Source of the DNA: Verrucomicrobiota bacterium
GTDB taxonomy: Bacteria > Verrucomicrobiota > Verrucomicrobiia > Limisphaerales > UBA11358
Reading direction: 5' to 3'
DNA: 64,000 nucleotides
Assembly: GCA_049510395.1 (NCBI GenBank)
Contig: JBEKYY010000001.1
Location: forward strand, 665-64,664
Part shown: one piece after another, positions 6,084-59,258 of the stretch
How positions within the stretch are numbered: position 1 is the stretch's first letter
How the letters are laid out: every line of letters starts with the position of its first letter
Notes under the pieces: model-generated
Seen by the model: the letters and a program-made list of their open reading frames with translations, nothing else
Told to the model about the DNA's origin: nothing
The model's database searches: none
Position numbers and translations under genes: made by a program

Positions 6084-7565
6084 TTAACCGCCAAGCGAAC
6101 CCGGATCGCCCACGTCGCCCTTGTTGAAATCCACGTATGCTTCCGTCAAATCGGCGGCGTAAATCACCGCGCTGGCCACGCCGAGATTCAGGTTGATATG
6201 CAGATCAAATTCCTTCGGCGCAACGACGGCACAAAGTTGTTTGAACGTCGCTCTCGTTGGCTGGCCATGTTTGAGGCCCCAAAGAATTTTCCCCCTGCCG
6301 CCTCGTCGCGCCGAAGCATCGGACGCGAAGGCGGAGTTGTAACCGATGTCCACCTTTTCCTCGACGATTTTCGCCGGCGAATAACCAAGCGCGTCAATGA
6401 TGCGGCCCCAGTTCGGGTCGCCGCCATGCCAGCTGGTTTTAACCAGCGGACTGTTGGCGACCGCGCGCGCCGCGGCATCGGCGTCCGCCGCCGTCTTTGC
6501 CCCGTACACGCGCACCGTCACGACGCGATGCACGCCCTCACCATCACGCACGATCATTTTGGCAAGTTCCAGGCAGACGTGATTGAGAGCCGCCTTGAAA
6601 ATTTTGAAATCATGGTGGGGCGAGACCCCGTTGAACCCCGACGTTTTGATTTTAGGACTCGAGAGGACTCTCGCCCCACCTTTCAAAATCGGATTTCCTG
6701 CCAAACCATTCGCCAAAACCAAAACCGTATCATTCGTGCTCATATCGCCATCCACGGTGATGCGATTGAAACTTTGCGCAACAGCCTCCTGCAAGGCGGC
6801 TTGAAGCACTCCGGCTTCAACCGCAACATCCGTTGTAATGAAACAAAGCATCGTCGCGTGCAGCGGCAGCGCAGCGGGCCGCTGGCCGTTGGTGCTCATG
6901 CCGGGCTGAATCATGCCCGCGCCCTTGCAAATGCCGCCCATGCGGACGGTCTTACCGCCCAGTTTGAACTCAACCGCGATTTGCTTGGGCCGCGTGTCGC
7001 TGGTCATGATGGCTTCGACGGCGTGGACCGCGTGACGCGATGAATTTCCAAGCAGCTTTGCGGCCTCCAGAATTCCGCGTTTGACGTTTCCCATCGGCAG
7101 CGTGACGCCGATACGTCCAGTTGAAGCAACCAAGACGTGTTCCGCGGGAATCTTTGGGAGGAACAGCGTGCCGCTGTCCCTGATTTTGGGGACGGCAACA
7201 TGCCGTCCCTCCCAGGGAATTGCCTTTGCGGCGATTCCCGTCATTTTGCGCGCGTCCTTCAATCCTTGTTTGCCGGTGCAGGCGTTGGCGTTGCTGGAAT
7301 TGACGACGATGGCCCGGGCGGTTCCTTTCCTGACGCGCTCAACACAAACCTTCACCGGCGCGGCGCAGACCTGATTCGTCGTGAACATGCCGGCAACCGT
7401 CGCCGGCGCCTCGGACACAATCAGCGCGAGATCGCGTTTTTGCCCCTTGTTCGAGCCTTTGCCGGTGCCGAGGCGTTTGATGTCGCAAAATACGCCACTG
7501 GCGAGGAAGCCTTTGGGCGCGATGACGGAACCTAAAATTGTTTTGAACTGCGTTTTCATTTTCAA
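6084..7565 (-). CDS. argJ: Bifunctional ornithine acetyltransferase / N-acetylglutamate synthase (ArgJ), with two in-frame repeat-derived inserts
   Basis: ArgJ-type sequence with the self-cleavage motif HATML/CFITTD, VASTGRIG and IVRDGEG. It is 493 aa, against roughly 400-410 aa as I recall for the family. Confidence 0.9.
   Translation of the reverse strand: MKMKTQFKTILGSVIAPKGFLASGVFCDIKRLGTGKGSNKGQKRDLALIVSEAPATVAGMFTTNQVCAAPVKVCVERVRKGTARAIVVNSSNANACTGKQGLKDARKMTGIAAKAIPWEGRHVAVPKIRDSGTLFLPKIPAEHVLVASTGRIGVTLPMGNVKRGILEAAKLLGNSSRHAVHAVEAIMTSDTRPKQIAVEFKLGGKTVRMGGICKGAGMIQPGMSTNGQRPAALPLHATMLCFITTDVAVEAGVLQAALQEAVAQSFNRITVDGDMSTNDTVLVLANGLAGNPILKGGARVLSSPKIKTSGFNGVSPHHDFKIFKAALNHVCLELAKMIVRDGEGVHRVVTVRVYGAKTAADADAAARAVANSPLVKTSWHGGDPNWGRIIDALGYSPAKIVEEKVDIGYNSAFASDASARRGGRGKILWGLKHGQPTRATFKQLCAVVAPKEFDLHINLNLGVASAVIYAADLTEAYVDFNKGDVGDPGSLGG
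6614..6680. repeat. Palindromic element, GGTGGGGCGAG family, inside argJ
   Basis: Arms are GGTGGGGCGAGA... and ...TCTCGCCCCACC, with extra flanking inverted ATTTTGAAA/TTTCAAAAT. It is translated in frame as GGARVLSSPKIKTSGFNGVSPHH. Confidence 0.85.
7156..7213. repeat. Palindromic element, GGGAGGGACGGC family, inside argJ
   Basis: GGGAGGAACAGCGTGCCGCTGTCCC tgatttt GGGGACGGCAACATGCCGTCCCTCCC. It is translated in frame as PWEGRHVAVPKIRDSGTLFLPK. Confidence 0.85.
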
Positions 7566-10202: not shown

Positions 10203-10232
10203 CTGTCAGTTGAGGGTTGAGGGTTGGGAGAA

Positions 10233-13026: not shown

Positions 13027-13638
13027 TCAACACCCGCCCCGCGCCGCCAGAAATTTCTCAGCGTATTTGCCCAGCAGGTCGGCCTCCAGGTTCACCGCGT
13101 CCCCGACTTTTCGTTCACGCAGGGCAGTGATTGCGTAGGTGTGCGGTATGATCCAGATGCGAAAGCCTTTTTTGTTCACGCCTGCGACGGTGAGGCTGAT
13201 GCCGTCCACCGCCACCGAGCCCTTGAAAACCATGTAACGCATCACCTCCGCCGGCGCAGCGATGTCGAGCACGTGGTCCTGTCCCGCGCGTTCCCAGCGG
13301 ATGATTTTGCCCACGCCGTCAATGTGGCCGGTAACAAAATGTCCGCCGAATTCGCCGTCCGCGCGCAACGGCCGCTCCAGATTCACCAGCGAACCGGGTT
13401 TGGCAAATTGCAGGTTGGTGCGCCGCCACGTTTCCTGAAGCAGATCAAATTGCGCAAGCTTGAATTTTCCGCATGTGGCCACTTTTACCGCCGTCAGACA
13501 ACAGCCATTCACCGCCAGGCTGCCGCCCGGCTTCAAGCCGCAGCCGGTCACGCCGGCGCGCACAGTCAGTTCAATGGATCTCGCCGCCGGCTGGATGCGC
13601 TCGACGGTTCCGGCTTCTTCGACAATGCCTGTGAACAT
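13027..13638 (-). CDS. ribE: Riboflavin synthase
   Basis: The canonical N-terminus MFTGIVEE begins at 13638. The ORF-track start at 13716 adds an implausible 26-aa leader. Confidence 0.85.
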   Translation of the reverse strand: MFTGIVEEAGTVERIQPAARSIELTVRAGVTGCGLKPGGSLAVNGCCLTAVKVATCGKFKLAQFDLLQETWRRTNLQFAKPGSLVNLERPLRADGEFGGHFVTGHIDGVGKIIRWERAGQDHVLDIAAPAEVMRYMVFKGSVAVDGISLTVAGVNKKGFRIWIIPHTYAITALRERKVGDAVNLEADLLGKYAEKFLAARGGC

Positions 13639-13753
13639 TTTGGAAAAGTTAAGCCCGCCGCGAGACCCTGTCGAGCCGCCTTTGATTCGTAGCGGCGTCT
13701 CGGAAGAGCGCCGCAAACTTGATTCAAAATGACGGCACTCTGCCGGGGTGCCG

Positions 13754-15031
13754 CTACGGAATGACCCGCGCCGTCAGCAACAAATCCGGCCCGATCCGCT
13801 TCCATTCAACGTCGCGAAGTCGAATCACCTCCGCCAGACTCCGGGCGCCCTCTCCCGCAACGGCTTTTCGCGAATCGCGCCCGCCCAAAATTTTCGGCGC
13901 GTAGAAAAACGCGACGCGCTGGGCCAAACCACCGAGCAGGAACGACGCGTTCACCTCGCCACCGCCTTCGACCAGCAGATTCGTGACGTTTTGGGCACCG
14001 AGTTTTTTCAGCAGCCAGGGCAGTTTAACATGTTGGTGGGGCGAGGCTACTGACGAGCCGTCTCCGCTTCGCTTCGCCACGCCGAGGCCGGCTCGCGGGG
14101 ACGCTCGCCCCACCTTTTGTATTGGCGCGACCAATACATTCACTCGTCTGGCCAGGGCCGCCACACGATTCTTCGGTGCGGATTTGCTCGCGACAATGGT
14201 TGTCAGCGCGGCAAACCTGTCGTTTGCCACTTTCGCCTTCAAAGGCGTTCGCGCCATCGAATCCAGAATGATTCTCCGAATCGGTTTTGCCATCTTCCAT
14301 CTTCCATCTTCCATCCTCGTCCTGGCCGTCAGGCTCGGATCGTCCGCCAGAATCGTATTAATCCCGACCAGAACCGCATCCGCTCCCTGGCGCAACTTCA
14401 TGGCGCAAGCCCGCGCCACTTCGCCGGTAATCCATTTCGATTCGCCTGTTGCGGTGGCAATTTTGCCATCCATCGTCATCGCCGCCTTCACCGTGACGAA
14501 CGGTGTGCGGTGAACAATCCAGTGATTAAACACCTCGTTGAGCCGCTGGCATTCATCAGCCAGAATTTGGTGGGGCGAGCGTCCCCGCGAGCCGGGCCGC
14601 GGCTCGTCAGTAGCCTCGCCCCACCGCGTTACGGTGACACCAGCCCGTTTCAAGATTTTGAAAGCCCGGCCGGAATGTTTTGGGTTGGGATCGGTCGCGC
14701 CAATAACGACGCGCCTGATTCCGGCGGCTTTGATGGCTTCGGTGCAGGGCGGGGTGCGTCCTCGCGTGCAGCACGGTTCGAGCGTCACGTAAAGCGTCGA
14801 GCGGCGCGGGCTATGACCGCGGTTTTGCGCATCGCGGAGCGCCTCGATTTCCGCGTGCGGCCCGCCCGCGCGCCGGTGCCAGCCGCGCCCGATGATTTTG
14901 CCGCTTTTCACCAGCACCGCGCCCACCATGGGATTCGGCGACGTCGCGCCGTAGCCGCGCCACGCCAGACCAATGGCCAGTCGCAGGTGGCGCCAATCAC
15001 TTTGGGAAAAGAATTTTGGTCGCGTGCCCAT
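13754..15031 (-). CDS. ribD: Bifunctional riboflavin biosynthesis deaminase/reductase RibD, with two in-frame repeat-derived inserts
   Basis: It has the deaminase motifs HAEIEAL and TLEPCC..GRTPPC. I prefer the ATG at 15031 (MGTRPKFF) to the TTG at 15046. Confidence 0.9.
   Translation of the reverse strand: MGTRPKFFSQSDWRHLRLAIGLAWRGYGATSPNPMVGAVLVKSGKIIGRGWHRRAGGPHAEIEALRDAQNRGHSPRRSTLYVTLEPCCTRGRTPPCTEAIKAAGIRRVVIGATDPNPKHSGRAFKILKRAGVTVTRWGEATDEPRPGSRGRSPHQILADECQRLNEVFNHWIVHRTPFVTVKAAMTMDGKIATATGESKWITGEVARACAMKLRQGADAVLVGINTILADDPSLTARTRMEDGRWKMAKPIRRIILDSMARTPLKAKVANDRFAALTTIVASKSAPKNRVAALARRVNVLVAPIQKVGRASPRAGLGVAKRSGDGSSVASPHQHVKLPWLLKKLGAQNVTNLLVEGGGEVNASFLLGGLAQRVAFFYAPKILGGRDSRKAVAGEGARSLAEVIRLRDVEWKRIGPDLLLTARVIP
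14035..14114. repeat. GGTGGGGCGAG-family palindrome inside ribD (copy 1)
   Basis: GGTGGGGCGAGGCTACTGACGAGCC, a 30-nt loop, then GGCTCGCGGGGACGCTCGCCCCACC. It is translated as VGRASPRAGLGVAKRSGDGSSVASPHQ. Confidence 0.9.
14569..14625. repeat. GGTGGGGCGAG-family palindrome inside ribD (copy 2, opposite orientation)
   Basis: GGTGGGGCGAGCGTCCCCGCGAGCC gggccgc GGCTCGTCAGTAGCCTCGCCCCACC. The arms are the exact reverse complements of those in copy 1. It is 57 nt, equal to the 19 codons WGEATDEPRPGSRGRSPHQ. Confidence 0.9.
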
Positions 15032-15048
15032 TTGAGCGCGAATCAATG

Positions 15049-17271
15049 CTAATACAGGCCCAGCCGCCGCAACAGGAAGTATTCATTAAAAGGATCGTCG
15101 TCCGTGATTCGAACTTTGGGATTGGAATTAAGAAGCTTATTGATGGGCAACCTCCGCGAAAGGACCAATCTCAGATAAGCGGGCAGGTCCCTGATAGAGG
15201 TCCATTCCAATAAATCCTTTTGCGCCGCGGCTGGCATGCACACCGCCAGTTGTTTGGGAGCCGGTATTTTGATGGGATCCATGGAGGCCAATAAATGCAC
15301 TCCGGACCCTGAGATCGATGAGAAGCCGCGCACATATGGAAATGATTCCATGGTGGAGCGAATGACCGCCTGTCCCGTCAACACTTCTCCGCCGGGGAAC
15401 CAGACTTGAACTATTCCGCCGGGTTTCAAATGCTGTTTGACCAAGGCGTAAAAATCCGTGGAATAGAGCAGGCTGGAACCCGCCGCCGTTGGAGGAGGCG
15501 GCGGGTCAATCACGATGACATCGAATTTTTTTGCGGTGCGCTTGAGATAGCGTCTTCCATCATCGATGACGATATGTCCGTTGGGATTATTGAGTACACG
15601 CGCCGCATCTGCGTGGTAAAATCCAAAAGCCTTTATCACACTCGGCACCAGTTCCACCGTCGTCGTGTCAATATCCCAGCTCAAAGCCGAACGATAAGTC
15701 GTACCCATGCCAAAACAAATAACCAGAGCCGATTCAGGTTTTCCTTGATGGGCAACCAGCGGCAAATGAACCATGAATTTGGTGATGGGTGACAGTATGG
15801 TCATGCCAATACCATTGACCAAAAGGTTTTTCTTCCAGCCCTTTTGAAAGGAAATCACCGAGGCGGCATAATCCCGCCGCACGGTCGTGTCCTTCTTGGT
15901 TTTGAACAGCATGCCTTCAAAATCTTCGGAGCCTAACAAAGACCAAACCAGAGCAACCCCGATGGCCAGTCCCAATCCCCAACGCTGCCATTGGAATTGG
16001 GATTTGAAAAAAGGAAACCAAAAAATGAAAAACGGCAAGCCGAGCAGGACCAATGCGTAACGTTCGCTCAAATGAGGCAATAAAACATAACAGGCGAACA
16101 GCGGCCCCAGAATGCATCCCAAAACATTTATCGCATAGGCTTGGCCGGCATCGGTCGGATGGCCGGCCGCATGTTCGTCAATCAGACTCGGCGTCAGATA
16201 CCCCAGCAAAGCGCAAAACGGACAGATGCTGCCCAACAGAATGATTGCGCTGATAACATCAATTGAAACCGCCCACCAATCTGTCGCAACAAATTGCGGA
16301 TTGTTGGCCAGCACTGGTAGAACAGCTGTGATCGCCAGCGCGGAAATCAATTCCCCCGTGGAACTGAGGCGATGCTTCCGAAGATCCCGGCGATACATCC
16401 ATGAACCGAGAAAAGTGGCTCCCAAATAAGTGAAAACAATCAGCGCGAAGGAATAAACCTGCGTTTTCAAAACCGGCGTGAAAGCGCGCGTCCACACAAC
16501 CTCCATCGCCATGGCCACAAACCCCGTCGAAAACAGAATCATTTTTGTCATCCGGCTGTTACGAGCCTGCGGACGCAATAACTCAGCCGACAGGGTCAAA
16601 TCCTCCGGTTTTTCCGAAAGAATGGCGGTTCGATGCTGTTCCCAAGCCAGACAAACGCTGATAAAGGCAATGGTGAAATTGCCTGCGGCAGCCTCCCAAA
16701 GGGTATGCCGGAACCCCGACAGTTCCACCAGAACAATGGCGGTGAGAAAAGTTCCGCTCATGGCGCCCAGCACATTGGCCAGGTAAAGAAAGCTGAAACT
16801 CTTGGTGTTCTGACAATCCCGTTCCCGGACATAAGCCATCATCAAAGGAAAGGTGGCGCCCATGCACACACACCACGGCAGGATGGAAACGGCCAGAACC
16901 AAGGCCGACAGAAACAAATAGCGGAAGGAATCCATCTCGCCGCTGGTCAGCAAAATGTGCTCGCCCAGGGCAAATAATTTGGGAACCGCAACCGCCCCCA
17001 ACCCGATCAAAAATTCCACACCCCCGTAAAAGAGGATGGCCGAACAGCCGGTTTTCTTTACCAATACAGGCACCAAACACCCGCCCGCCCAGGATCCAAC
17101 AGAAAGCCCCAGCATGAAAACTGACAACACCACGGAAAGCACCGGAGTGATGATCCCGAACGAGGCGAAGGCCATTCGCGTCCATACCACCTGATAAACC
17201 AGACTGCAAAAGCCGGACAAAAAAAACAGGGAGAACAAAACCCGGCGCGTGAATTGATTCATGCGGCTCAC
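15049..17271 (-). CDS. Fused multi-TM / spermidine-synthase-like (PABS-fold) protein, tandem copy 1
   Basis: The N-terminal half is hydrophobic and about 450 aa long (FFLSGFCSLVYQVVWTRM...). The C-terminal part has a methyltransferase-fold motif: VICFGMGTTY...VIVIDPPPP. Confidence 0.75.
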   Translation of the reverse strand: MSRMNQFTRRVLFSLFFLSGFCSLVYQVVWTRMAFASFGIITPVLSVVLSVFMLGLSVGSWAGGCLVPVLVKKTGCSAILFYGGVEFLIGLGAVAVPKLFALGEHILLTSGEMDSFRYLFLSALVLAVSILPWCVCMGATFPLMMAYVRERDCQNTKSFSFLYLANVLGAMSGTFLTAIVLVELSGFRHTLWEAAAGNFTIAFISVCLAWEQHRTAILSEKPEDLTLSAELLRPQARNSRMTKMILFSTGFVAMAMEVVWTRAFTPVLKTQVYSFALIVFTYLGATFLGSWMYRRDLRKHRLSSTGELISALAITAVLPVLANNPQFVATDWWAVSIDVISAIILLGSICPFCALLGYLTPSLIDEHAAGHPTDAGQAYAINVLGCILGPLFACYVLLPHLSERYALVLLGLPFFIFWFPFFKSQFQWQRWGLGLAIGVALVWSLLGSEDFEGMLFKTKKDTTVRRDYAASVISFQKGWKKNLLVNGIGMTILSPITKFMVHLPLVAHQGKPESALVICFGMGTTYRSALSWDIDTTTVELVPSVIKAFGFYHADAARVLNNPNGHIVIDDGRRYLKRTAKKFDVIVIDPPPPPTAAGSSLLYSTDFYALVKQHLKPGGIVQVWFPGGEVLTGQAVIRSTMESFPYVRGFSSISGSGVHLLASMDPIKIPAPKQLAVCMPAAAQKDLLEWTSIRDLPAYLRLVLSRRLPINKLLNSNPKVRITDDDPFNEYFLLRRLGLY

Positions 17272-17518: not shown

Positions 17519-19777
17519 TCAACGCCAGGACCACCCCCACTGCCGCAACAGAAAATATTCGTTGAAAGGCTGGTCATCAGTGATATGTATCTTGGGATTT
17601 GGGTTAAGGGGCAGCGGAACAATTTCACGGGACACCACTTTTCCGATATAAGTCTGGGCATTCTGGGAATTATTCCATTCCAGGAGATCTCTTTTGGCGC
17701 TTTCGGGCATCTTTGCCACGAGCTGATTCGCATCGAGTTGTTCGATGGGTTCTGAGGAAGCCAGCAAATGGACTCCCCATTTTTCGACCGATTGGAAGCC
17801 GCGCACATACGGGAATGATTCCTGGATGGATCTGGTGATGGCTTGTCCGGTAACCAGTCCGCCGCCCGGCGGAGACCACATCTGGAGGATGCCGCCGGGC
17901 TTCAAATGTTGTTTGGCCAGTTCATAGAATTCCTTGGAATAAAGCAGGCTGGAACCTGCCACCTCCACCGGCGGCGACGGATCAACCACAATAACGTCAA
18001 ATTTTTTTGAGGTGCGTTTGAGATAACGCCGCCCGTCGTCAATGATGATATGCCCGTTGGGGTCATTGATGAAGCGTGCGGCGTCGGCATGATAAAATCC
18101 AAAAGCTTTCGTCACGTTGGGCACCAATTCCACTGTGGTCGTATCCAGGTTCCAGCTCAAGGCTGAGCGATAGCTGGTGCCCATGCCGAAACAAATAACC
18201 AGAGCCGATTCAGGCCGTCCTTGATGAAATGCCAACGGCAGATGCACCATGAATTTGGTGACCGGGGTGAGCCGGGTCATGCCCAGCCCGTTGACCAAAA
18301 GCACCTTTTGCTTCCGCGGATCGGCGGAAATGACGGAAGCCGCATAGTCTCGCCGCACCTCAATACGACTGGAATAACTCGACACCACGTCCTGAAAGTC
18401 GTTGGCAAAAAACAGTGAACCGACCAGAACCGCACTGGCCGCCAGCCCCGATCCCAAGCGTTGCCATACGGACAGGGAGCTCCAGCCAAGGAGATAAAAC
18501 ACAAAAAACGGCAGGCTGAGGAGGATTAATGCGTGTCGTTCACCGATCCAAGGCAACAAAACGTAAGAGGCGAAGATCGGTCCCAGAATGCAACCGAGGA
18601 CATTGACCGCATAAGCCTTCCCGGCAACCGCCGGATCGCCGGCGGCGTATTCGTCAATCAAACGCGGAGTCAAATATCCCAGAACCGCACAGAACGGGCA
18701 AATGCTGGCCAGCACAATGATCACGCTGACCGCATCGATGGAATACACCCAGTCACTTTTTACGAGCCGGGGATCATTGGCCAGAATGGGGAGAAAAACC
18801 GTGACCACCAGAAGACTCATCAACCTGGCTGTCGGCCAGGGTGATTTTTGTTTGAGATGGTGGCGATACCACCAGGAGCCGAGAAAAGTGGCGCCCAGAT
18901 AGGCAAAAACGACCGAAGCAAAGGAATAGACCTGTGTTTTTAAAACCGGCGCGAACACGCGGATCCAAACCACTTCCATGGCCATCGCGCCAAATCCGGT
19001 TGAAAACAAAATCCATTTAATGAGCTGGCGGCGGGTATTGCCAGATGCGGACAAGTCGCCTGGCCCGGCTGAACGCTCCGCTTCCGTCAAAGCCATGGCT
19101 TCGAAACCTCGTTGCTTCCAGCCCAGATAAGCACCGATGACGGCAATGGTGAAATTGCCTGTGGCAGCCACCCAAAGCGTATGGCGAAACCCCATCAGTT
19201 CCACCAGAACCACGGCCGTCAAAAAAGTTCCGCTCATCGCGCCCAGCACGTTGGCCAGATAGAGAAAGCTGAAACTTTTCGTGTTTTTACAATCCCGCTC
19301 CCGGACGTAAGCCATCATCAAGGGAAAAGTTGCGCCCATGCACACACACCACGGCAGGATGGCAATGGCCAGAACCAGGGCCGACAGAAACAAATAGCGG
19401 AAGGAATCCATCTCGCCGGTTCCCAGCAAAAGGTGTTCGCCGATGGCAAACAGGTGCGGAACGGCAAACGCCCCCAACCCGATCACCAATTCAGCCCCGG
19501 CATAAAAGAGAACAGCGGAATGGCCGGTTTTTTTTACAAACAAACGAATCAAACGCCCCCCCGCCCATGAACCGACGGCTAGTCCCAGCATGAAAACCGA
19601 CAAAACCACAGACAGCACCGGAGTGATTATCCCAAACGAGGCAAAGGCCATTCGCGTCCAAACCACTTGATAGACGAGGCTGCAAAAGCCGGACAAAAAA
19701 AACAGGGAGAACAAAACCCGGCGCGTGCATTGATTCATTGCATCCGTTGATTTACCCATCAGGCCAGGTTTAGACAA
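17519..19777 (-). CDS. Fused multi-TM / spermidine-synthase-like protein, tandem copy 2
   Basis: 752 aa and colinear with 15049-17271. The start may be the internal MNQCTRRVLF. Confidence 0.75.
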   Translation of the reverse strand: MSKPGLMGKSTDAMNQCTRRVLFSLFFLSGFCSLVYQVVWTRMAFASFGIITPVLSVVLSVFMLGLAVGSWAGGRLIRLFVKKTGHSAVLFYAGAELVIGLGAFAVPHLFAIGEHLLLGTGEMDSFRYLFLSALVLAIAILPWCVCMGATFPLMMAYVRERDCKNTKSFSFLYLANVLGAMSGTFLTAVVLVELMGFRHTLWVAATGNFTIAVIGAYLGWKQRGFEAMALTEAERSAGPGDLSASGNTRRQLIKWILFSTGFGAMAMEVVWIRVFAPVLKTQVYSFASVVFAYLGATFLGSWWYRHHLKQKSPWPTARLMSLLVVTVFLPILANDPRLVKSDWVYSIDAVSVIIVLASICPFCAVLGYLTPRLIDEYAAGDPAVAGKAYAVNVLGCILGPIFASYVLLPWIGERHALILLSLPFFVFYLLGWSSLSVWQRLGSGLAASAVLVGSLFFANDFQDVVSSYSSRIEVRRDYAASVISADPRKQKVLLVNGLGMTRLTPVTKFMVHLPLAFHQGRPESALVICFGMGTSYRSALSWNLDTTTVELVPNVTKAFGFYHADAARFINDPNGHIIIDDGRRYLKRTSKKFDVIVVDPSPPVEVAGSSLLYSKEFYELAKQHLKPGGILQMWSPPGGGLVTGQAITRSIQESFPYVRGFQSVEKWGVHLLASSEPIEQLDANQLVAKMPESAKRDLLEWNNSQNAQTYIGKVVSREIVPLPLNPNPKIHITDDQPFNEYFLLRQWGWSWR

Positions 19778-36865: not shown

Positions 36866-36943
36866 GGTAGGGCGCGATGTCCTCATCGCGCCGCGGTATA
36901 AAACGCACACCCAAGCGGCGGGCTGAGGACAGCCCGCCCTACC
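36866..36943. repeat. GGTAGGGCG...CGCCCTACC palindromic element
   Basis: GGTAGGGCGCGATGTCCTCATCGCGCCGC ... GCGGCGGGCTGAGGACAGCCCGCCCTACC. The right arm contains the stop codon of the 36939 gene. Confidence 0.8.
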
Positions 36944-45326: not shown

Positions 45327-47690
45327 ATGGATTCCGTTGAAAAAGTATTAAAGGCCGTGCTGGATTTCCACGCAGGCGACCCGCAGTTGCTGGCCGTTCA
45401 ACTCAAAGCATCGCCAGCTTCGGTTCAACGCTGGGTGACTGGCGCAGCCAAGCCCCGTCCCGCCTATGAGGCAAAGCTCCGAAAAATTTATTCCGAACTG
45501 GTAAGCCAACCGTCCGAATTAAAAGAGACCCCGCCAGCCTACCGTGTCACCCCGCATCATCCGATGATAACGGAGGCAGTTGACGCAACGCTCCGGTCTA
45601 TTCGAGAGATTCTGCATAAGCGCGCTCATCTGTCATCGAGAAGCCAGGCACTGGATGAACTGTCCAAACTTCTCTTTGCTCACGTCGAAGGTCTGCGCCG
45701 TGGTAACGGGGGCATTTCCCGGCAGGCCGTTGCTCGAAACGGCCAGAGTCTGGCCGCAGCTTTGAAAGAGCATGTGGACGAAACGATTCGTCAAAGCCTG
45801 CCGGAATCACTCGCGCACTCTGTGGATGCGCGGGACTTTGAATTGAAGCTCAAGCCACAGGAGAACGAGTTGGCGGCGGAGTTGGTTGAGTGTTTTGAAA
45901 CATTACAACGGCAAACCTCCTCATTTAGTTTTTCCGGCTTCGACATTCTCAACGAAGTGTTTGGAAAATTCTTGGCGGATTCGTTTATTGACGAGAAAGA
46001 GCTTGGCCAATATCTGACACCGCCTGAAGTGGTCAGATTCATGATTGGTCTGGCGATTCATGGACTGTCCGACTCGGAACTGGAGATGCTTTGTGATCCC
46101 AAGCGGTGTGCCGATTTCGGTTTGATTCTCGATCCATCGTGCGGGGTGGCTTCATTCCTAGCCGAAACAGTTCACCAGCTTCAGGAGCGAATGAAGGAAC
46201 GCATACAAGACGCCAAGCAGCGCGAAGCTTGGCTCAATGCTCTGCTTGGGCGCGTGGTGGTCGGGATAGATAAAAGCGAGAGAATGGTTCGGCTGGCGCT
46301 GACCAACATTGCCATGTTCGGTTTTCCGATGGCCAGGCTTCACCTCGCCAACTCGCTCGCCAGAAACGGAGCGGATGCCAAACTTACGGACAGTTTGGCC
46401 GGAAAGGTCAGGTTGATTCTAACGAATCCCCCCTTCGGCGCGTCTTTTCAAGGCAACGACTTGGTGAAATACAAGATTGCAACCCAGTGGTCACGGCGTT
46501 TCCCCGGACGTTTGGATTCCGAAATTTTATTCATGGAGCGTTACCTCGACTGGCTTGCTCCTGGGGGGCAACTCATCGCAATCGTGCCCGACAGCATTTT
46601 AACGAACAAGGCCGTGTTTGAGGAACTGCGCCGGGGAATTGCGAACGACATTGATTTATGCACGGTCGTTTCGTTGCCTAGCGTGACTTTTGGTGTTGCA
46701 GGCACAAACACAAAAACCTCCATTCTTCATCTGCGCAAGAAATCGAAAGCAAACGGTTCATCACAATGCACGGCGTTCGCCATCTGCCAAGACATCGGAT
46801 TTACAGTTGCGACGAAGGCAAACCAGCGCATGAAGATTGTTCAGGGCGAGGGTGATCTCCCTCGCATCCTCAATGAGATTACCGAGCCGCCGCCCAAATC
46901 GAATTTGGTAAGGTGGCTGGAGGATGCCCATGTTCTTGAGCGGTGGGATGCTCAACACCACGCTTCGCTGTCAGCCGAAGTTGAGCAGCGTCTCAACCTC
47001 AAGACCGACGAGGATCTTTATGTTTCGGACGTTGCCGAGTTGGTGGACGAGCGCGCCGACCCGCGCCGATGGGGAGACAAACAATTCAATTATATCGAAA
47101 TCTCTGACATTGATTCACAGACTTGTGTTGTTTACTCCAACAGTATCGAAACTTCAGTCGCACCGAGTCGGGCGAGAAAGATTGTGAAAGCAGGTGACGT
47201 GCTGGTTTCAACGGTCCGACCAGAGCGCGGGACAGTCGGGATCGTTGGGCCGCATCAAGATGGCTCGGTTTGCACGACCGGGCTGGCTGTCTTGCGGCCA
47301 ACGAAGATTAACGCACTGACTTTGGCCTGTCTCTTGAAGACCGAATTTGTGATTGCTCAACTTATGCGCAACAACGTCGGCATCGCGTACCCCGCTATTG
47401 ACGAGTCCTGTCTTTTGGGGGTGCTGCTGCCGGCTCGGCGGGAGGATTTGCCGAAACTTCGGCGGCAAGCCGCAGAGATTTCAGAGAACGAGGAACGTCT
47501 TCATACCATCCGAAAGCGCTTCAAGGAATCTATTGAGAGTGCCGGGGCTGCGTGGCGGCAGATGAACTTCAAGCCAGCTTCCAAACCTCATCCAGCGATC
47601 CAAACCACGTCCCGTCGCCAATCTCGCACGGTGGATTCTGGTTCACATGATCAGGAAACTTTTCAGCTCGCGGCAAGCCATAGCGCTTGA
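45327..47690 (+). CDS. N6-adenine DNA methyltransferase with N-terminal HTH and C-terminal HsdS-like target-recognition region
   Basis: It has an HTH-like segment LAVQLKASPASVQRWVTG, motif I LDPSCGVASFL and motif IV LTNPPFGASF. The TRD-like segment is GDVLVSTVRPERGTVGIV...TGLAVLRP. Confidence 0.8.
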   Translation: MDSVEKVLKAVLDFHAGDPQLLAVQLKASPASVQRWVTGAAKPRPAYEAKLRKIYSELVSQPSELKETPPAYRVTPHHPMITEAVDATLRSIREILHKRAHLSSRSQALDELSKLLFAHVEGLRRGNGGISRQAVARNGQSLAAALKEHVDETIRQSLPESLAHSVDARDFELKLKPQENELAAELVECFETLQRQTSSFSFSGFDILNEVFGKFLADSFIDEKELGQYLTPPEVVRFMIGLAIHGLSDSELEMLCDPKRCADFGLILDPSCGVASFLAETVHQLQERMKERIQDAKQREAWLNALLGRVVVGIDKSERMVRLALTNIAMFGFPMARLHLANSLARNGADAKLTDSLAGKVRLILTNPPFGASFQGNDLVKYKIATQWSRRFPGRLDSEILFMERYLDWLAPGGQLIAIVPDSILTNKAVFEELRRGIANDIDLCTVVSLPSVTFGVAGTNTKTSILHLRKKSKANGSSQCTAFAICQDIGFTVATKANQRMKIVQGEGDLPRILNEITEPPPKSNLVRWLEDAHVLERWDAQHHASLSAEVEQRLNLKTDEDLYVSDVAELVDERADPRRWGDKQFNYIEISDIDSQTCVVYSNSIETSVAPSRARKIVKAGDVLVSTVRPERGTVGIVGPHQDGSVCTTGLAVLRPTKINALTLACLLKTEFVIAQLMRNNVGIAYPAIDESCLLGVLLPARREDLPKLRRQAAEISENEERLHTIRKRFKESIESAGAAWRQMNFKPASKPHPAIQTTSRRQSRTVDSGSHDQETFQLAASHSA

Positions 47691-48447
47691 CGTCTTTAGG
47701 AACTGAACGGGCGAACGCAAATTCGCGGATGTTGCCGCTACGCAAGAAAAGACTGACCGCAAAGAAGTCTTGGGTGGCAAATTTGCAACTGCTCGTTGGA
47801 TAACCATCTGTCAGGCTGTGAATCAAGCGCGCGAATTTGGTGTTCGTTCCCCAAAGTGATTTAGCTTCGAGCTTTTTAATGACGCCTGACTTCTCCACTT
47901 CGAAATCAAAATAAGCGTAGCCGCCGATATGCTTAGCCATGTCTTCGGGCATCCGGCGTACTTTGTAACCGGCCTTCTTCAAAACTTGAACAAGCGAATA
48001 CTCGACCAAGCCGCTGAGAACTTTTGCCGATGCCCCATACTGGTCAACTTCCAAGAAATCGTTTTGTGAGAGACCCGCCAGCGCTTTCTCAAGCTCTGCT
48101 TTCTTTGAAGCTGAACCTGTGTAAATTTCTCCTTCGGCAACGCCTGCTCGCTTATCCACAGAAAGAATCCGACCTTTGGCAATTTCCCGCCAGACACCGC
48201 CTTCCTCGTAGGATTGTGGAACAAATTTGCCCGTTCGACCGGGAACAGCCAAGTCTTCACACTCCTTGTCGATACGGATCTTGAAGCTGGCGCGGTAGTG
48301 GCTTTGGCCGGAAACCTTGATGATGGTTTTGTCGAGTGTTCTAATCGGAATAAGAACCGGACAGAGAATGCTCTCAAGTGCCTGCGGCGTTACATCACCA
48401 TAGCGCTTTGTCAGCCGCTCAAAGAGAGCCTTGTAATCAACTTTCAT
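47569..48447 (-). CDS. Candidate restriction endonuclease (PD-(D/E)xK-like), convergent with the methyltransferase
   Basis: A possible catalytic core is LVEYS...YFDFEVEKSGVIKKLEAKS (E...D-x12-E-x-K). The gene is AT-rich and its 3' end overlaps the MTase gene by 122 nt. Confidence 0.45.
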   Translation of the reverse strand: MKVDYKALFERLTKRYGDVTPQALESILCPVLIPIRTLDKTIIKVSGQSHYRASFKIRIDKECEDLAVPGRTGKFVPQSYEEGGVWREIAKGRILSVDKRAGVAEGEIYTGSASKKAELEKALAGLSQNDFLEVDQYGASAKVLSGLVEYSLVQVLKKAGYKVRRMPEDMAKHIGGYAYFDFEVEKSGVIKKLEAKSLWGTNTKFARLIHSLTDGYPTSSCKFATQDFFAVSLFLRSGNIREFAFARSVPKDVKRYGLPRAEKFPDHVNQNPPCEIGDGTWFGSLDEVWKLA

Positions 48448-48500
48448 AAATCAGTTCTTCGCCCCCGCTATGCCCTTCCATTTTATGCCTTTCACCCAGA

Positions 48501-48699
48501 GGTGGTCACAGTTTGTGACCACCTTCAAACACTTTAAGGTCGCAAATTGCGACCTTAACCCGAACCGGTCACAGATTGTGACCGGTCCATTTGATATGCC
48601 AATTTGGCATTTCAAAAACTCTGCCCACTTGCTGCCACGATCTTGAGGTCACAAATTGTTACCAGTTCCACATCCTTCTTGAAATCATAAACTGTGATT
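48501..48699. repeat. Array of six palindromes with 3-nt centres
   Basis: The six sites are 48501-48523 GGTGGTCACAgttTGTGACCACC, 48536-48556 AAGGTCGCAaatTGCGACCTT, 48564-48586 ACCGGTCACAgatTGTGACCGGT, 48596-48610 ATGCCAattTGGCAT, 48647-48663 GGTCACAaatTGTTACC and 48683-48699 AATCATAaacTGTGATT. Confidence 0.9.
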
Positions 48700-48783
48700 G
48701 CGGACGAGTTCGGCAGCGGCGTTCACCAACGCCCCGGGCGGTTGGATTCGGCGATCGTGGAGTTCATGGGCCGTCCTCTAGTT

Positions 48784-49317
48784 TCAATCCTCCTCGCGGA
48801 ACTTCTTCACGGCAAACCGCTGGATGCGCACCGGCTCGAACTCGCCAATGCCACCCTTGCACCGCGCAGTGGTGAGTTGTTGCTCGACGGTTTTGATGCC
48901 TTTGACGTCGGCCAGCAATATCCCGCAACGATTATCTTCGGTGGTCAGCACGACGCCGTAACGCCGCGGGTCCAACTCCGTCGTCGAGGTGACTTCCTCC
49001 GGCGGGTGAACCACGCTGACCTCGAAGTGCAAATGCTCCAATTCGCGGGGGCCAACCGGCGCAAAACGTCCATCACGGAAGGCGGCATCGCGCGCGACGT
49101 GCCACGTTTCCTCAGCGGTGTTCGCAAAGTGTGGTGTCAACGTGCCGACGCAGCCGCGCAATTTCTGTCGCGGACCGCGGATGGTAACGAACACGCCGTG
49201 CCGCTCGCCCAGGATGCCCTCCGCCGCGATTGCCGGTTTTCCCGCATCGCCGCGGAACGCGGCTTCGATCGAGCGCCGCGCGATCTGCGAAAGCGCCTTT
49301 CCGGTTTCCTGCTCCAT
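48784..49317 (-). CDS. amrA: AMMECR1-domain protein (AmmeMemoRadiSam system protein A)
   Basis: It has the LRGCVGT motif and the RDGRF segment. I prefer the ATG at 49317 (MEQETGKALSQIARRSIEAAF) to the ORF-track start at 49365. Confidence 0.75.
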   Translation of the reverse strand: MEQETGKALSQIARRSIEAAFRGDAGKPAIAAEGILGERHGVFVTIRGPRQKLRGCVGTLTPHFANTAEETWHVARDAAFRDGRFAPVGPRELEHLHFEVSVVHPPEEVTSTTELDPRRYGVVLTTEDNRCGILLADVKGIKTVEQQLTTARCKGGIGEFEPVRIQRFAVKKFREED

Positions 49318-49346
49318 AATTTCAGTTCTTCGCCGAGGCAAGAGGC

Positions 49347-49458
49347 GGTTGTAATTTGCTACCACCTCAAACGTTTAAGTTCGCAAATTGTTACCAGTTC
49401 CGCGTTCATCCCGAAATCACAATTTGCAATTTCAAGGTAGTCACAGATTGTGACGACC
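49347..49458. repeat. Second, colinear palindrome array
   Basis: The four sites are 49347-49363 GGTTGTAattTGCTACC, 49379-49395 GTTCGCAaatTGTTACC, 49415-49431 AATCACAattTGCAATT and 49436-49458 GGTAGTCACAgatTGTGACGACC. The spacer blocks (acctcaaacgtttaa, agttccgcgttcatcccga) are homologous to those of the 48501-48699 array. Confidence 0.85.
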
Positions 49459-49500
49459 TTTTCTCAGCTAAGCGCGATAGACCAGTCCGGCTTGGATCGC

Positions 49501-49623
49501 CAACCCTGGGCTGATGGATTTGACTTGAGCCGTTTGGGAAACGGCGAAAGGAATTTGGCAAAGCCAAAGGCCTGCCAAGGCCGAGCGAGCGGGCGCGAGT
49601 GAGTCCATCCCGTTGGGATTCAC
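49501..49623. repeat. CAACCCTGGGCTGATGGATTTGA ... CCCGTTGGGATTC repeat
   Basis: The blocks at 49501-49523 and 49605-49623 are shared with 51323-51363. Confidence 0.7.
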
Positions 49624-49654
49624 GGACGAAGCGTAACGCAGTGAAACGAAAGGG

Positions 49655-51094
49655 CTACGGTCTAAACAAACGAAAGAAAGCGTTTCCAACTGGCGAAGCC
49701 ATGAACAAATGGTTCGTGCCGTCATCTTGAATGCCATTTGTCACATTGCTCCAGTTTGATGTTTGGAGGCCATTCGTATTCTCCTGAAGCGCGCATCTTG
49801 GCGCGGGAGAAGGCCAGGAGACGGCGACTTGATTCGTCGCTGTTAGCCGAATCTGGAGCAATGGCGGCGGGATACTGAACAAATATGCCGCACCTGTGTT
49901 CATGGCGCCCGTATTGTCGCCAGGAGAACCTGCCAGCACCAAATCGTCGCCAAAGACGGCTAATGAGCTGCCGAACCCAAGATATAGATTGAGATATATC
50001 GCCGTGGGGTTGGTAAAAGTAGCCAGCGTGTTGCCGTTCGTGCTGAACAAAAATACCGTCCCGGAGCGGGTTTGGACATTGTCATCGGGGGCGCCGATGA
50101 GCACTTGATTGGTGTCCACCGCGGCGATGGAGGAGCCAAACTGCGCGCTCGGATCCGCATTCGGATCGGTGAAAGAAGCTAGCACCGCAGCGTTGGTATT
50201 GAATAAATAAACGGTTCCCGATGACGCACTGATAAGCACCCGGTCGTTACCCAACGCGACCATGGACCACCCATAATTCTCATAGTTTGGCGCATTTGAA
50301 TCGGTAAAATTCATCAGCAAAGTGCCATTGGTATTAAACAAATAAGCCCCACCGGGATTCGAGGTATAAGGGTCGGTCTGCGGCGCGCCCACCAGCAATT
50401 TGTCGTTGAAGACCACTGCAACCGAGTGACCAAACAGATTATCGCCCGGAATCGGATTGGTGATCGTGGTTAACAGGATCCCGTTCGTGCTGAACAAAAA
50501 CGCCGCGCCGCTGTTGGGGATGCTCAACTGATAGCCTTGTGCCCCGATCAGTACCCGGTCCCGACCCAGCGCCGCCACGGAACTGCCAAACTGGAGTACC
50601 GACGACGGAGTGGGATTGGTGAAAGTCGTCAGCAAGTTTGCATTGGTGTCAAACAGGTAGGCCGCACCGCCGCCGTCCGCAAACCGCGCGCCGATGATCA
50701 CGCGATTGTTGCCCATTGCACTCATGGCCTCGCCGAACTGCGCGCCCATCTTCGGGACCGGATTGGTGAAGCTCAACAGCAATGTGCCGTTCGTATTAAA
50801 CAGATAGGCGGCTCCCGCGTTCTCGGCTCCCGTGTCATCGGCGGGCGCGCCGACGAGCACCCGGTCATTCCCCACCGTCGCCACCGACCAGCCGAATTCA
50901 GCAAATGCGCTGGGGACAGGGTTGGTGAAAGCCGTGATTAATATTCCCGTTTGCGCGAGGCAGACAAACGGAGCGAGCAGCCCAACCACGTCCAAAATTT
51001 TAACTAAGCGGAATTTCACGGCGTCAGGAATAACAGTAACCCCACACGGCACCCCAGACAATCCTGAATTGCGCCACTGATGGCGAAGAACCAT
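49655..51094 (-). CDS. Secreted FG-GAP-like beta-propeller repeat protein
   Basis: There are at least 7 repeats of about 45-50 aa of the type FG.SVA..G.DRVLIGAP....GAAYLF.TNG.LL.TFTNP. The C-terminus carries a W...LQ...FFRL module. The start is uncertain. Confidence 0.65.
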   Translation of the reverse strand: MVLRHQWRNSGLSGVPCGVTVIPDAVKFRLVKILDVVGLLAPFVCLAQTGILITAFTNPVPSAFAEFGWSVATVGNDRVLVGAPADDTGAENAGAAYLFNTNGTLLLSFTNPVPKMGAQFGEAMSAMGNNRVIIGARFADGGGAAYLFDTNANLLTTFTNPTPSSVLQFGSSVAALGRDRVLIGAQGYQLSIPNSGAAFLFSTNGILLTTITNPIPGDNLFGHSVAVVFNDKLLVGAPQTDPYTSNPGGAYLFNTNGTLLMNFTDSNAPNYENYGWSMVALGNDRVLISASSGTVYLFNTNAAVLASFTDPNADPSAQFGSSIAAVDTNQVLIGAPDDNVQTRSGTVFLFSTNGNTLATFTNPTAIYLNLYLGFGSSLAVFGDDLVLAGSPGDNTGAMNTGAAYLFSIPPPLLQIRLTATNQVAVSWPSPAPRCALQENTNGLQTSNWSNVTNGIQDDGTNHLFMASPVGNAFFRLFRP

Positions 51095-51138
51095 TTTTTT
51101 GTGAGAATGGCGACACGCCTAGATGCGGGCGCAACGGC

Positions 51139-51363
51139 CAACCGCAACGCGGTTGCAACCTTCAGCCCGGCGTTGCCGCGCAGCGGCTACGCTGGGTGAA
51201 CTGGCAAAATGAAAAACAACTCTGAAGGAGTTGTGTCAGGTTGCGGCGGATTGGATGCAACGTTTTCAGCGTTGATAAATTGGTTGGCTGGTTTCCTAGG
51301 GTAGCCCCGAAAGCATTCGGAGCAACCCTAGGCTGATGGATTTGAATCTCGTTGGGATTCGAG
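51139..51363. repeat. Composite noncoding repeat region
   Basis: It contains a 7-3-7 palindrome CAACCGCaacGCGGTTG (51139-51155), a CAACTCtgaagGAGTTG hairpin, and then CAACCCTAGGCTGATGGATTTGA..CGTTGGGATTC (51323-51363), which matches 49501-49623. Confidence 0.65.
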
Positions 51364-51381
51364 CACGCCGAGCACGACAGA

Positions 51382-53193
51382 TCACTCTCGCTCGAAATCA
51401 ATTTGGCCATCGAATTCAAGAATAGCCTTCGTATTGAGTCCCCCTCCACATTCGCGCTGTTCCAACGTGTCGAACGCTCGAACGACTCTGTCTTTGATAA
51501 GCGTGAAACAATCTTTTGAACTGATCTCCAGAGCTGGCTCCATATAAAGAGCATAGCGATTAAACGCCACTAATCCCTTAACCTTTTCACATTGAAATTC
51601 AGTGACGCGTGCCTCGCCCCGCAAAGCTTGGCTGAGCGCTTCTTTGAATTTCTCTTTGTCTATCCCGAAGGGGTCAACACTGGATTTTTTTCTGAACCGT
51701 GAGATTTCAATCACCCGCCGCTTGTGGTTAATTGGGACGCCGTTCACATGGTCTGGAAGAGCGACGAGCAACTCTTCGGGAGGTTGTGCGTAAAGATGTC
51801 CGAACAACTTTTCTATGATTGCCCAAACTTCTACAGTGGCTTCTTCTCCAGGCAAACGTGCAAGTGTGCCTGTCTTTTCCAGAGCAGCAGCAATAGGCCG
51901 CTGACCGAATTCTCGCCAATCCATTACGAGATGGAACACGCCCAAGTGTGGATTGGTTGCGTGCATCGTGATTACTCCGGAGACCCATCCGGGTTCAGTT
52001 TCAGCTTCTGGAGTTTGCATGAAAACAAATCCGTCGCTCGCCACAGCCCGATGCACGGCTTCTGCCTCGGCAGCGAGGCATCGCCAAGGCAACATCTGTG
52101 AATGAATGTGTTTCTTGAATTGTTCGGCTCTAAGGAAGTCATCCGGCGTTGGGGAAACGCGCGCGAAAAACTGAACAGCTAGGTCCAGTTCGGGGCACAC
52201 GTAAAAATGGCTATCCCAACTCAAATGCCGTCGCGATACCTCCCTGAGAAAGCCTTCAGGGGGCGCAAATGCGTATTGTCGGTCCTCGACGAGTTTCTCC
52301 CCAATTTTCGACATGCACTGCCAGTGGGTCAATTCACCGGCATATGGGGTTTGGTGTTTCGGATGTTTGTCGCGGCTTGTCAACTCAATTGGACTGAAAA
52401 TAAATGAAAGCCATTCGCCGGGTAGCAACTCAAAACCCGATTTTGACACGACATCTCTTGCAGACTTGATGAATGCCTCCAAGTCTTGGTTCTGGGTTTG
52501 GACATTAAAGCCAGAGATGAATCGCGGCTGAAGCGTTTTGAGCACGGTCATCCAACTTGGAAGCCAGTTAAGATTGGTTTGGCAACGTTCCAAACTCATC
52601 TCGTCTCGTTCGCGTGATTCGTTAAAAGCAACGAAAGGTGAAGCGACAGATTCACTGCGATAACCTGGCATCAACACCGGATAGACATCGCAAGCAAGCG
52701 AAAAATCATCAAGCCGCAGAAGCTTTGCGTAAAACTTCTCAATGATCCCACTGAGAAGCTGACGAGAATTTGCGAGGTCAGATTCGCGTGACAGACGGAA
52801 CGAAATGGATTCTTGACCCAAACGGCTATAATCGGCACGAAGCTGGGGCATAGGATCACACCAGTATGCACGACCACTCTCAACATCGTAAACGGCAATG
52901 AAGATCGGAAAATACTCTTCGACCCATTGTCGGCAGATAGAAGCTTTGATTGTAACGCTCAGGTAACCGTCATCCGTTTCAGTGACTTCGTCCCCGAGAG
53001 ACTTTCCCTTGACCTGACACCGGAAATAAAGATTTGTGCGTTGGCCTTCCGCGAAAATGTTGGACTCAACATCTTCCCCGTAATCGCTTTGAACAATATC
53101 GGCGGTCCATCCCCATCGTTTGAAGATTAGGGCTACACTGGTTTGGGCAATGTCTCCGGTGACGTGCTCCTTTGGTCTTTGCGGTTTGTCCAT
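51382..53193 (-). CDS. DUF4365-type (restriction-endonuclease-like) N-terminal domain protein with a C-terminal region of about 450 aa of unknown function
   Basis: The N-terminal pattern is GDIAQTSVALIFKRWGW..DIVQSDYGEDVE.......LYFRCQVKGK....PIFIAVYDVESGRAYW. I prefer the ATG at 53193 (MDKPQRPKEH). The gene is AT-rich. Confidence 0.6.
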   Translation of the reverse strand: MDKPQRPKEHVTGDIAQTSVALIFKRWGWTADIVQSDYGEDVESNIFAEGQRTNLYFRCQVKGKSLGDEVTETDDGYLSVTIKASICRQWVEEYFPIFIAVYDVESGRAYWCDPMPQLRADYSRLGQESISFRLSRESDLANSRQLLSGIIEKFYAKLLRLDDFSLACDVYPVLMPGYRSESVASPFVAFNESRERDEMSLERCQTNLNWLPSWMTVLKTLQPRFISGFNVQTQNQDLEAFIKSARDVVSKSGFELLPGEWLSFIFSPIELTSRDKHPKHQTPYAGELTHWQCMSKIGEKLVEDRQYAFAPPEGFLREVSRRHLSWDSHFYVCPELDLAVQFFARVSPTPDDFLRAEQFKKHIHSQMLPWRCLAAEAEAVHRAVASDGFVFMQTPEAETEPGWVSGVITMHATNPHLGVFHLVMDWREFGQRPIAAALEKTGTLARLPGEEATVEVWAIIEKLFGHLYAQPPEELLVALPDHVNGVPINHKRRVIEISRFRKKSSVDPFGIDKEKFKEALSQALRGEARVTEFQCEKVKGLVAFNRYALYMEPALEISSKDCFTLIKDRVVRAFDTLEQRECGGGLNTKAILEFDGQIDFERE

Positions 53194-53212
53194 CGGAGTT
53201 TGTCGCTTGGCT

Positions 53213-53333: not shown

Positions 53334-54839
<1,506 letters not shown>

Positions 54840-54956: not shown

Positions 54957-54985
54957 GAGTCGCCAAATTGCCCGCCACCCGGCCT

Positions 54986-59188: not shown

Positions 59189-59258
59189 GGTGGGGCGAGC
59201 GTACTCGCGAGCCTTATCCGGGAATTTACAAACGGCTCGCGGGGACGCTCGCCCCACC
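59189..59258. repeat. GGTGGGGCGAG-family palindrome at the DUF2339/DUF3999 gene junction
   Basis: GGTGGGGCGAGCGTACTCGCGAGCC, a 20-nt loop, then GGCTCGCGGGGACGCTCGCCCCACC. Confidence 0.9.

Follow-up and report, generated by a model that had tools for sequence, protein, structure and literature searches.

Repeats read through in the ribD gene

The stretch of DNA analyzed here, designated the window (64 kb; positions 665 to 64,664 of contig JBEKYY010000001.1, from a Verrucomicrobiota bacterium of the Limisphaerales), contains a ribD gene that is read without interruption through two copies of a short repeat, designated F1. The copies occupy two sites, A and B, in opposite orientation (Table 1). 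A preliminary description of the sequence had claimed that one palindromic element occurs twice in ribD, once flipped, and that both copies are read through; this was borne out by the exactly swapped arms and by the single open reading frame (ORF) of 430 codons that includes both elements in the ORF list. Public gene calls place the start at 15031, which gives a protein of 425 residues. The Pfam domains dCMP_cyt_deam_1 and RibD_C matched residues 16-116 and 182-424, respectively.

The copy at site B has 25-nt arms, GGTGGGGCGAGGCTACTGACGAGCC and GGCTCGCGGGGACGCTCGCCCCACC, separated by a spacer of 30 nt. The arms of the copy at site A are the exact reverse complements of these, in swapped order, around a spacer of 7 nt, so that both copies are heterodimers of the same two arm subtypes, T and R, of one element in opposite orientation. 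In the ribD frame, the copies at sites B and A read KVGRASPRAGLGVAKRSGDGSSVASPHQ and RWGEATDEPRPGSRGRSPHQ, respectively, and the dimers are translated conceptually as (K)VGRASPRAGLGVAKRSGDGSSVASPHQ at site B and (R)WGEATDEPRPGSRGRSPHQ at site A, with WGEATDEPRPGSR and VGRASPR as the predicted peptides spanning the insert junctions. The terminal sequence, GGTGGGGCGAG, was read as V-G-R-A and W-G-E in ribD and as G-G-A-R in argJ (6614-6680), and thus in all three phases.

A third variable insert site, C, holds a tandem heptamer array in frame, and orthologs have other heptamer-type peptides there. Typical RibD proteins have 361-367 residues, and the two chains from the PDB that were aligned have 373 and 402. 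The excess length of the window protein (425-430 residues), which had been pointed out in the preliminary description, results from the two F1 inserts, the heptamer-repeat insert and an N-terminal extension. The ribD DNA with both inserts was identical in three more metagenome contigs (L120-L122), of which two or more came from other samples, and the identical protein (P0001) was found on 18 contigs.

The inserts were mapped, as the preliminary description had proposed, by sequence alignment to the RibD chains of B. subtilis (2b3z.pdb) and E. coli (2g6v.pdb). The site A insert was a clean gap of 18-19 residues relative to both chains. It follows the final strand of the deaminase domain and precedes the reductase domain, so that a 19-residue stretch without a counterpart in either structure lies in the inter-domain linker. 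The site B insert was in an unaligned loop of the reductase domain, ahead of the helix that begins at residue 280 of 2b3z, and the site C peptide, MEDGRWKM, was in a loop that also differs between 2b3z and 2g6v. An AlphaFold2 model of RibD, made with a 56-sequence alignment, was dropped for mapping, as the mean pLDDT was 57.7 and the reductase domain was unresolved.

Table 1. Coordinates of the genes and repeats described in the text (positions in the window)
Feature	Position	Strand	Details
ribD, bifunctional deaminase/reductase	13754..15046	minus	430 aa from TTG start
Site A, F1 REP dimer, 57 nt	14569..14625		coding strand: T arm, 7-nt spacer, R' arm
Site B, F1 REP dimer, 80 nt	14035..14114		coding strand: R arm, conserved 30-nt spacer, T' arm
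Site C, tandem heptamer array (CCATCTT) x3.7	14290..14315		in frame as MEDGRWKM; TRF
argJ, 493 aa	6084..7565	minus	Pfam ArgJ E = 5e-124; four variable insert sites
Degenerate S-subtype F1 REP dimer, 67 nt	6614..6680		in frame within argJ; read as GGARVLSSPKIKTSGFNGVSPHH
F1 REP dimer, 70 nt	59189..59258		intergenic, just downstream of the 56088-59165 gene; R/R' arms 92% complementary
Inverted dimer of another GTAG-tagged REP family (CGTAGCGGCG...)	13688..13758		ribD-ribE spacer; overlaps ribD stop codon
GTAG-tagged REP dimer (GGTAGGGCGCGATG...)	36866..36943		intergenic
7-nt arrays	10209-10226, 14290-15, 20243-57, 20725-51, 20759-88, 23639-65, 38108-25, 38234-64, 41548-63		

The F1 repeat and an associated transposase

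The window contained four F1 dimers, two in ribD, one in argJ and one in intergenic DNA. An 11-mer of the element occurred 12 times with no more than one mismatch, 8 of these being exact, as compared with a mean of 1.9 in shuffled sequences, none of which (0/100) reached 12. Rfam gave no match in the window at gathering thresholds and none at E <= 1 in 13600-15200. A pattern scan that covered one genome per species returned at least 119 matching stretches; among the 80 matches listed, most were contigs of Verrucomicrobia/Limisphaerales metagenome-assembled genomes (MAGs). F1 is plentiful in the Limisphaerales, or Verrucomicrobia subdivision 3. The listed loci and the window together yielded 56 complete tail-to-tail dimers with conserved arms and spacers of 0-78 nt; their lengths ranged from 50 to 128 nt with modes at 50, 67-70 and 78-81 nt. 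Complete dimers were also seen in two contigs binned as Bifidobacteriaceae (L042) and Granulicella (L050), and two other Bifidobacteriaceae bins (L024 and L052) had a single-arm match only; these are probably mis-binned Verrucomicrobia contigs.

The preliminary description had treated the whole palindrome as the element. The copies do form one repeat family, but its unit is a hairpin monomer of the repetitive extragenic palindromic (REP) type, and the palindrome is a tail-to-tail dimer of two monomers that has a cognate REP-associated tyrosine transposase (RAYT). The monomer is the 25-nt arm, which consists of a GGTGG tag followed by GGC-GA-GNN, a 4-nt loop and NNC-GA-GCC, forming a hairpin with an 8-bp stem. 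All F1 copies begin with G-GTGG-GGCGAG, the tag being GTAG in some (L050, L084, L105, L154), and arms are also present as singletons. Three arm subtypes were distinguished, R (CGTCCYCGC), S (ACTCCCGTC), which is compensatory to R, and T (GCTACTGAC), which has one extra mismatch.

The stem covaries. Among 95 distinct arms, 85% of the cells were paired, as compared with 39% or less in every slid control, and 60 cells with double changes were observed against 33 +/- 3.5 after shuffling, with 0/500 shuffles reaching 60. Pair 13-18 was GC in 39 arms and CG in 29, and pair 12-19 was CG in 29, AU in 12 and GC in 11, with UA also found. As RNA, the dimers folded with energies of -35 to -52 kcal/mol and z scores of -4 to -8.5 (site A: -40.9 kcal/mol, z -5.35; site B: -50.3 kcal/mol, z -4.19; the intergenic dimer at 59189-59258: -51.8 kcal/mol, z -8.5).

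Target-site duplications, which the preliminary description had suggested looking for at the element ends, were absent from all 56 copies, where flank matches of 2-5 nt were at chance level. The flanks showed a pyrimidine preference beside the head (YY|GGTGG) and nothing else conserved. The 80-nt subtype, which includes the copy at ribD site B, had the same 30-nt spacer in other MAGs, where its copies lie in xerC/D, in hflX and at further loci, and because this spacer is conserved in unrelated genes, the doublet must have been copied as a whole unit. When the copies are compared with the spacer in one orientation, the arms have the order T..R' in the site B copy (window:14035), L098, L017, L085 and the partial copy of L124, and R..T' in L117, L077 and L088; the arms have thus changed places around the spacer, possibly through template switching or conversion within the element.

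A transposase gene was found beside F1 arms. A motif scan with MP[ND]HxH[LVI][LVI] found nothing, the motif here being MPDHLHAF, and a relaxed scan led to the locus L010, where a 168-aa ORF lies between F1 arms, with one arm about 60 nt upstream and a dimer starting 57 nt downstream. Its HUH motif is MPDHLH, and its tyrosine motif is YVQENPVRKG. It matched the NCBIfam model for REP-associated tyrosine transposases (NF047646, REP_Tyr_transpos) over nearly the full profile (E = 6.5e-20, 71.5 bits) and E. coli TnpA-REP (4er8.pdb; E = 2.7e-8), with the HUH and tyrosine motifs aligned. The ORFs that arm pairs enclose in L014 and L076 were rejected as candidates; neither is a transposase, and that of L014 resembles an extracytoplasmic function sigma factor.

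When the L010 protein was used as a query against metagenome contigs, 201 relatives were obtained. The 15 RAYT loci of at least 69% identity, with the exception of L137 (70%), all had F1 arms no farther than about 110 nt from the gene, and 10 had them on either side. The R-type arm pattern was found at 0/13 RAYT loci of 47-68% identity. The eight loci of 58-66% identity whose flanks were read were all inside inverted pairs of S-type arms, a 47% relative was flanked by a GTAG version of the S arm, and relatives of about 40% identity were flanked by unrelated GTAG REPs. This is a REP/RAYT ("REPtron") arrangement in which the transposase clade co-varies with the repeat subtype.

In six of the eight 58-66% loci (L138, L139, L141, L146-L148), the RAYT gene lies between two permease-like genes, and in L143 such a gene is on the downstream side only. 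One of these neighbors ends in ...RMNPVDALRNE*, and both look FtsX/MacB-like by eye. The shared position suggests that the S-arm-flanked RAYT is a vertically inherited, domesticated single-copy gene.

Intragenic copies and changing inserts at fixed sites

Intragenic copies of F1 are common and non-disruptive, as a census of the kind proposed in the preliminary description showed. When the longest ORF across each copy was taken, 27/56 dimers were 50 or more codons deep inside it, the three phases being represented 7, 11 and 9 times, in accord with the earlier claim that three phases are used. By a looser criterion, 31/51 copies were within long ORFs as compared with 72% of random segments of the same length from the same loci, so coding DNA is barely avoided. 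Seven host genes, all genuine housekeeping genes, were confirmed by Pfam: those of MutL, GlmS, LeuRS, MutS, a UvrD-family helicase, HflX and XerC/D. The LeuRS gene of L089 has, besides its F1 insert, one of the F4 type (GGSSRCDDRTAQRAVPT) and, by eye, a third (...VAAVCDRRHTPENVSDGHRPPLQT).

It had also been claimed that the element is stop-free in several phases and orientations and that this property is expected of a repeat that survives inside genes. The elements were open in an average of 4.18 of six frames, and the R and S arms in 6/6, but 2/6 frames of the T arm contain a stop and each copy carries 1-4 stop codons in total over six frames. The average is only slightly above the 3.76 obtained with composition-matched shuffles and the 3.65 of random genomic segments. 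The GC content of the elements is about 71% and that of the window 57%. Stop-freeness is real, but it is mostly an effect of GC composition and weak evidence of adaptation to genes.

The 119 closest RibD orthologs (69-77% overall identity to the query by BLASTP) were compared at the insert sites. In this comparison, which had been suggested in the preliminary description, the orthologs were not simply insert-free, nearly all of them carrying some repeat at the same sites, often one of another family. Sites A and B had 12 and 10 classes of insert, respectively. Site A was occupied in 116/120 proteins, and the four empty sites keep the canonical motif V-x-x-G-x-L. The F1 forms at site A were T..R' in 30 orthologs, the flipped form R..T' in 20, R..R' in 7 and S-type in 5, and there were at least five families other than F1 (GKGRARHSVRAV...RRAEDCAPYQ, GVPRSRG...RLKAELQT, GSSRRDDRTARRAVPT, GLRRHVGALKSGDMSPHSK and GSAGVPPAS...RRDAGAP) as well as composites in which another family is joined to the right F1 arm only. 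Site B contained F1, two versions of a GTAG REP dimer or one of several heptamer-repeat peptides. In the DNA of three orthologs, the insert peptides were seen to be encoded by REP dimers, for example GGTAGGGCGCGTCACTCCGTGCGCGCC ... GGCGCGCACGGAGTGACGCGCCCTACC.

On a neighbor-joining tree of 329 core columns, at least 50 state changes were counted at site A and at least 55 at site B. Independently of the tree, the insert class was shared in 71-100% of pairs with more than 90% core identity and in 30% of those at 87-90%; below 87%, it was shared at chance level (12-16%). The insert class is inherited vertically among close relatives and is then turned over.

The same was seen in argJ. In orthologs, the F1 site contained an S-type dimer in the GGA phase, an R..T' dimer in the VGR phase, other palindromic families or heptamer arrays. 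ArgJ orthologs are 447-512 residues long, and one insert site is immediately upstream of LHATML, the motif at which autoprocessing presumably occurs. The heptamer units differ between orthologs at one position (ribD sites B and C; argJ) and look like a second class of in-frame filler beside the REPs. Tandem arrays with a 7-nt period, in 2-4 copies of various units, are frequent in the window, both genic and intergenic.

Other REPs are present in the window. The family that overlaps the ribD stop codon (GTAGCGGCGTCTCGGAAGAGCGCCGC-like) has a similar intergenic dimer at 54905-54964, and it resembles the GTAGCGGCGG... REPs that flank RAYTs of about 40% identity in L156 and L161. A REP related to the 36866-36943 dimer, with which it has a common GGTAGGGCGCG head, fills ribD site A or B in other lineages (DNA of L123 and L125). 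Directly upstream of ribD are genes for two paralogous membrane proteins of about 740 residues each with spermidine-synthase domains (15049-17271 and 17519-19777); a Spermine_synth gene is also immediately upstream of ribD in L123 and L125, and not so in L124. The window yielded no FMN riboswitch. The gene at 53334-54839 encodes the N-terminal half only (501 aa) of the carbamoyl-phosphate synthase large chain. Beside this half of carB, a block with lower third-position GC (45327-53253) encodes a DUF4365 protein, an FG-GAP repeat protein and an N6 DNA methylase; the block could be an inserted island, or carB could be split.

Origin of the inserts and relation to known systems

The most satisfactory explanation, which is considered highly probable, is that the F1 elements are tail-to-tail dimers, or REPIN-like doublets, of a REP spread by a RAYT, that in-frame copies in loops are tolerated and that the sites turn over. 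From the adjacency and co-variation of repeat and transposase, a cognate, presumably single-copy RAYT, of the HUH/Y1 type, is the most likely agent of F1 spread and would act on single-stranded hairpin DNA, which would account for the lack of target-site duplications. REP doublets and other short repeats would insert widely, and in essential genes only in-frame copies in permissive loops would survive. Because the elements are GC-rich and mostly stop-free, such copies would be tolerated in loops and linkers of essential proteins, where their predicted translation products are loops of 17-28 residues rich in Gly, Ser, Arg and Pro. A loop once expanded may become a safe harbor in which further insertion, partial deletion or replacement is nearly neutral, and for that reason the sites would persist while repeat families and orientations change among orthologs.

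Several observations weigh against this explanation, 1) the covariation was free at two stem pairs only, the outer pairs having been fixed by the search pattern, 2) the monomer stems contain a tandem G.A mismatch and the T-subtype arm a further one, 3) the F1-associated RAYTs score 60-71 bits, with the NCBIfam cut-off at 80, and Pfam, including Y1_Tnp, gave no match to the L010 RAYT, 4) neither a RAYT nor another transposase was found within the window, the RAYTs described being those of related contigs, 5) the intragenic class rests on long ORFs, and 3/10 of the hosts inspected resemble wrong-strand shadow ORFs, making the intragenic fraction approximate, 6) the ortholog set may favor proteins that have insert words in common with the query and 7) the turnover counts come from a neighbor-joining tree of poor resolution.

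It is judged unlikely that the turnover instead reflects a mechanism, either recombination or insertion hot spots that recruit the next repeat or a selected hairpin or linker, rather than neutral churn. If the sites were actively targeted, new repeats would home into resident REP hairpins by RAYT cleavage and strand transfer or by template switching and replace them like cassettes. Such homing would explain why the same two or three sites hold inserts, of 12 and 10 classes, in almost all orthologs, why composites retain the right F1 arm with the left replaced by another family, why one site holds both orientations in the same phase and why the T and R arms are swapped relative to the fixed spacer orientation in 3/8 copies; REPs are, moreover, known targets of insertion sequences (PMC3733652). 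However, families with unrelated termini and heptamer arrays occupy the same sites, for which a permissive-loop filter is a better fit, a single ArgJ site is read in different phases and the flanks have no conserved target beyond YY, so that homing seems a rather doubtful explanation. In-situ inversion was considered as a possible sole cause of both orientations at site A; the spacers of the query (Q) and of P0006 are unrelated. Retention of the hairpins for a function, such as the pausing of ribosomes by mRNA structure at the domain boundary, mRNA stability or a selected flexible linker, appears less probable still. Site A is exactly at the deaminase/reductase boundary, its occupancy is near 100% (116/120) despite the turnover and the folds are very stable. 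Yet F1 sits as readily in intergenic DNA as in many unrelated genes, in every phase and either orientation, non-hairpin heptamer arrays substitute for it at sites B and C, four orthologs and all RibDs solved in the PDB have no site A insert of any kind and the peptide sequences are not conserved between classes. Homing and selection were both rated below tolerated insertion because some lineages are empty and the sites are also occupied by unrelated families and by heptamer arrays that are not palindromic.

[quoted passage not shown] This origin is very improbable, since the 56 copies lack target-site duplications, the arms occur singly, each with its own covarying hairpin, they flank genes for RAYTs rather than DDE transposases and the terminal tag, GTGG or GTAG, is REP-like. 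All of the data come from MAGs and metagenomes, and a few F1 contigs were binned as Bifidobacteriaceae or Granulicella, so the inserts could in principle be artefacts of assembly or binning. The recurrence of the identical ribD DNA in L120-L122 and of the protein on 18 contigs, the inheritance of the insert class among close relatives and the intact reading frames make this explanation scarcely credible.

Doublets of this kind have close precedents. GTAG- and CGTC-tagged REPs, REPtrons and tail-to-tail dimers with variable spacers were described by Di Nocera, De Gregorio & Rocco in 2013 (PMC3733652), who reported a GTGG variant of the tag in a verrucomicrobial family, O. terrae GTAG-20. Opitutus terrae was the genome richest in intragenic GTAG REPs; the dimers encode 20-30 aa, sometimes occur twice per gene and are often in DNA-repair genes, and in one case different REPs were near the same site of orthologous recB genes (PMC3733652). 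F1 resembles these GTAG/GTGG REPs in its tagged hairpin, compensatory sub-families, tail-to-tail dimers, flanked RAYTs and in-frame intragenic dimers. It differs in coming from Limisphaerales MAGs, in having another consensus and a conserved tandem G.A in the stem, in being about half intragenic, in the multi-family turnover at fixed sites seen in more than 100 orthologs of two genes and in the co-occupation of these sites by heptamers.

As in the REPIN/RAYT system (Bertels & Rainey 2011; PDB 4er8; PMC8266576, PMC5581495), inverted doublets replicate as a unit, an HUH/Y1 transposase is in conserved synteny, its clades co-vary with REP subtypes and target-site duplications are lacking. RAYTs typically occur as a single copy per genome (PMC5581495). 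Unlike classical REPINs, which are overwhelmingly extragenic, F1 is often intragenic, an exception that is also documented for O. terrae, and the F1 RAYTs are divergent, falling under the NCBIfam cut-off; mobilization of F1 by them is a prediction from sequence. The findings widen the range of intragenic REPs from a single isolate, Opitutus terrae, to an entire uncultured order and tie the repeat to a RAYT. They also quantify the rate of replacement, class identity being lost by about 13% core amino-acid divergence as the sites persist. In Verrucomicrobia MAGs, such inserts inflate protein lengths, seed spurious ORFs and "hypothetical proteins" and can mislead homology and word searches. The pattern of fixed sites with changing content is a natural data set on the tolerance of loops to insertion and on whether REPs target one another.

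Rickettsia palindromic elements (RPEs) are the classical parallel for in-frame insertion. From one Rickettsia species to another, RPE sites mostly stay the same, whereas the F1 sites change their content quickly. In the summary of Ogata et al. (2000) that is given in PMC3733652, RPEs are like F1 in being in frame in essential genes and tolerated at the protein surface; the RPE-1 inserts are described there as longer palindromic insertions. RPEs belong to a lineage and to a repeat family that are unrelated to those of F1. Bacterial MITEs (Correia/NEMIS, Nezha, ERIC and others; PMC10969869) are likewise small, non-autonomous, hairpin-forming and multi-copy, and some are in frame, but they have terminal inverted repeats derived from insertion sequences, target-site duplications and DDE transposases, none of which was found here. 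An element of this kind is thus already known, and what is new is its Limisphaerales-wide spread, the co-variation of RAYT and arm subtype and, for the fixed sites of two genes, a measure of the turnover.

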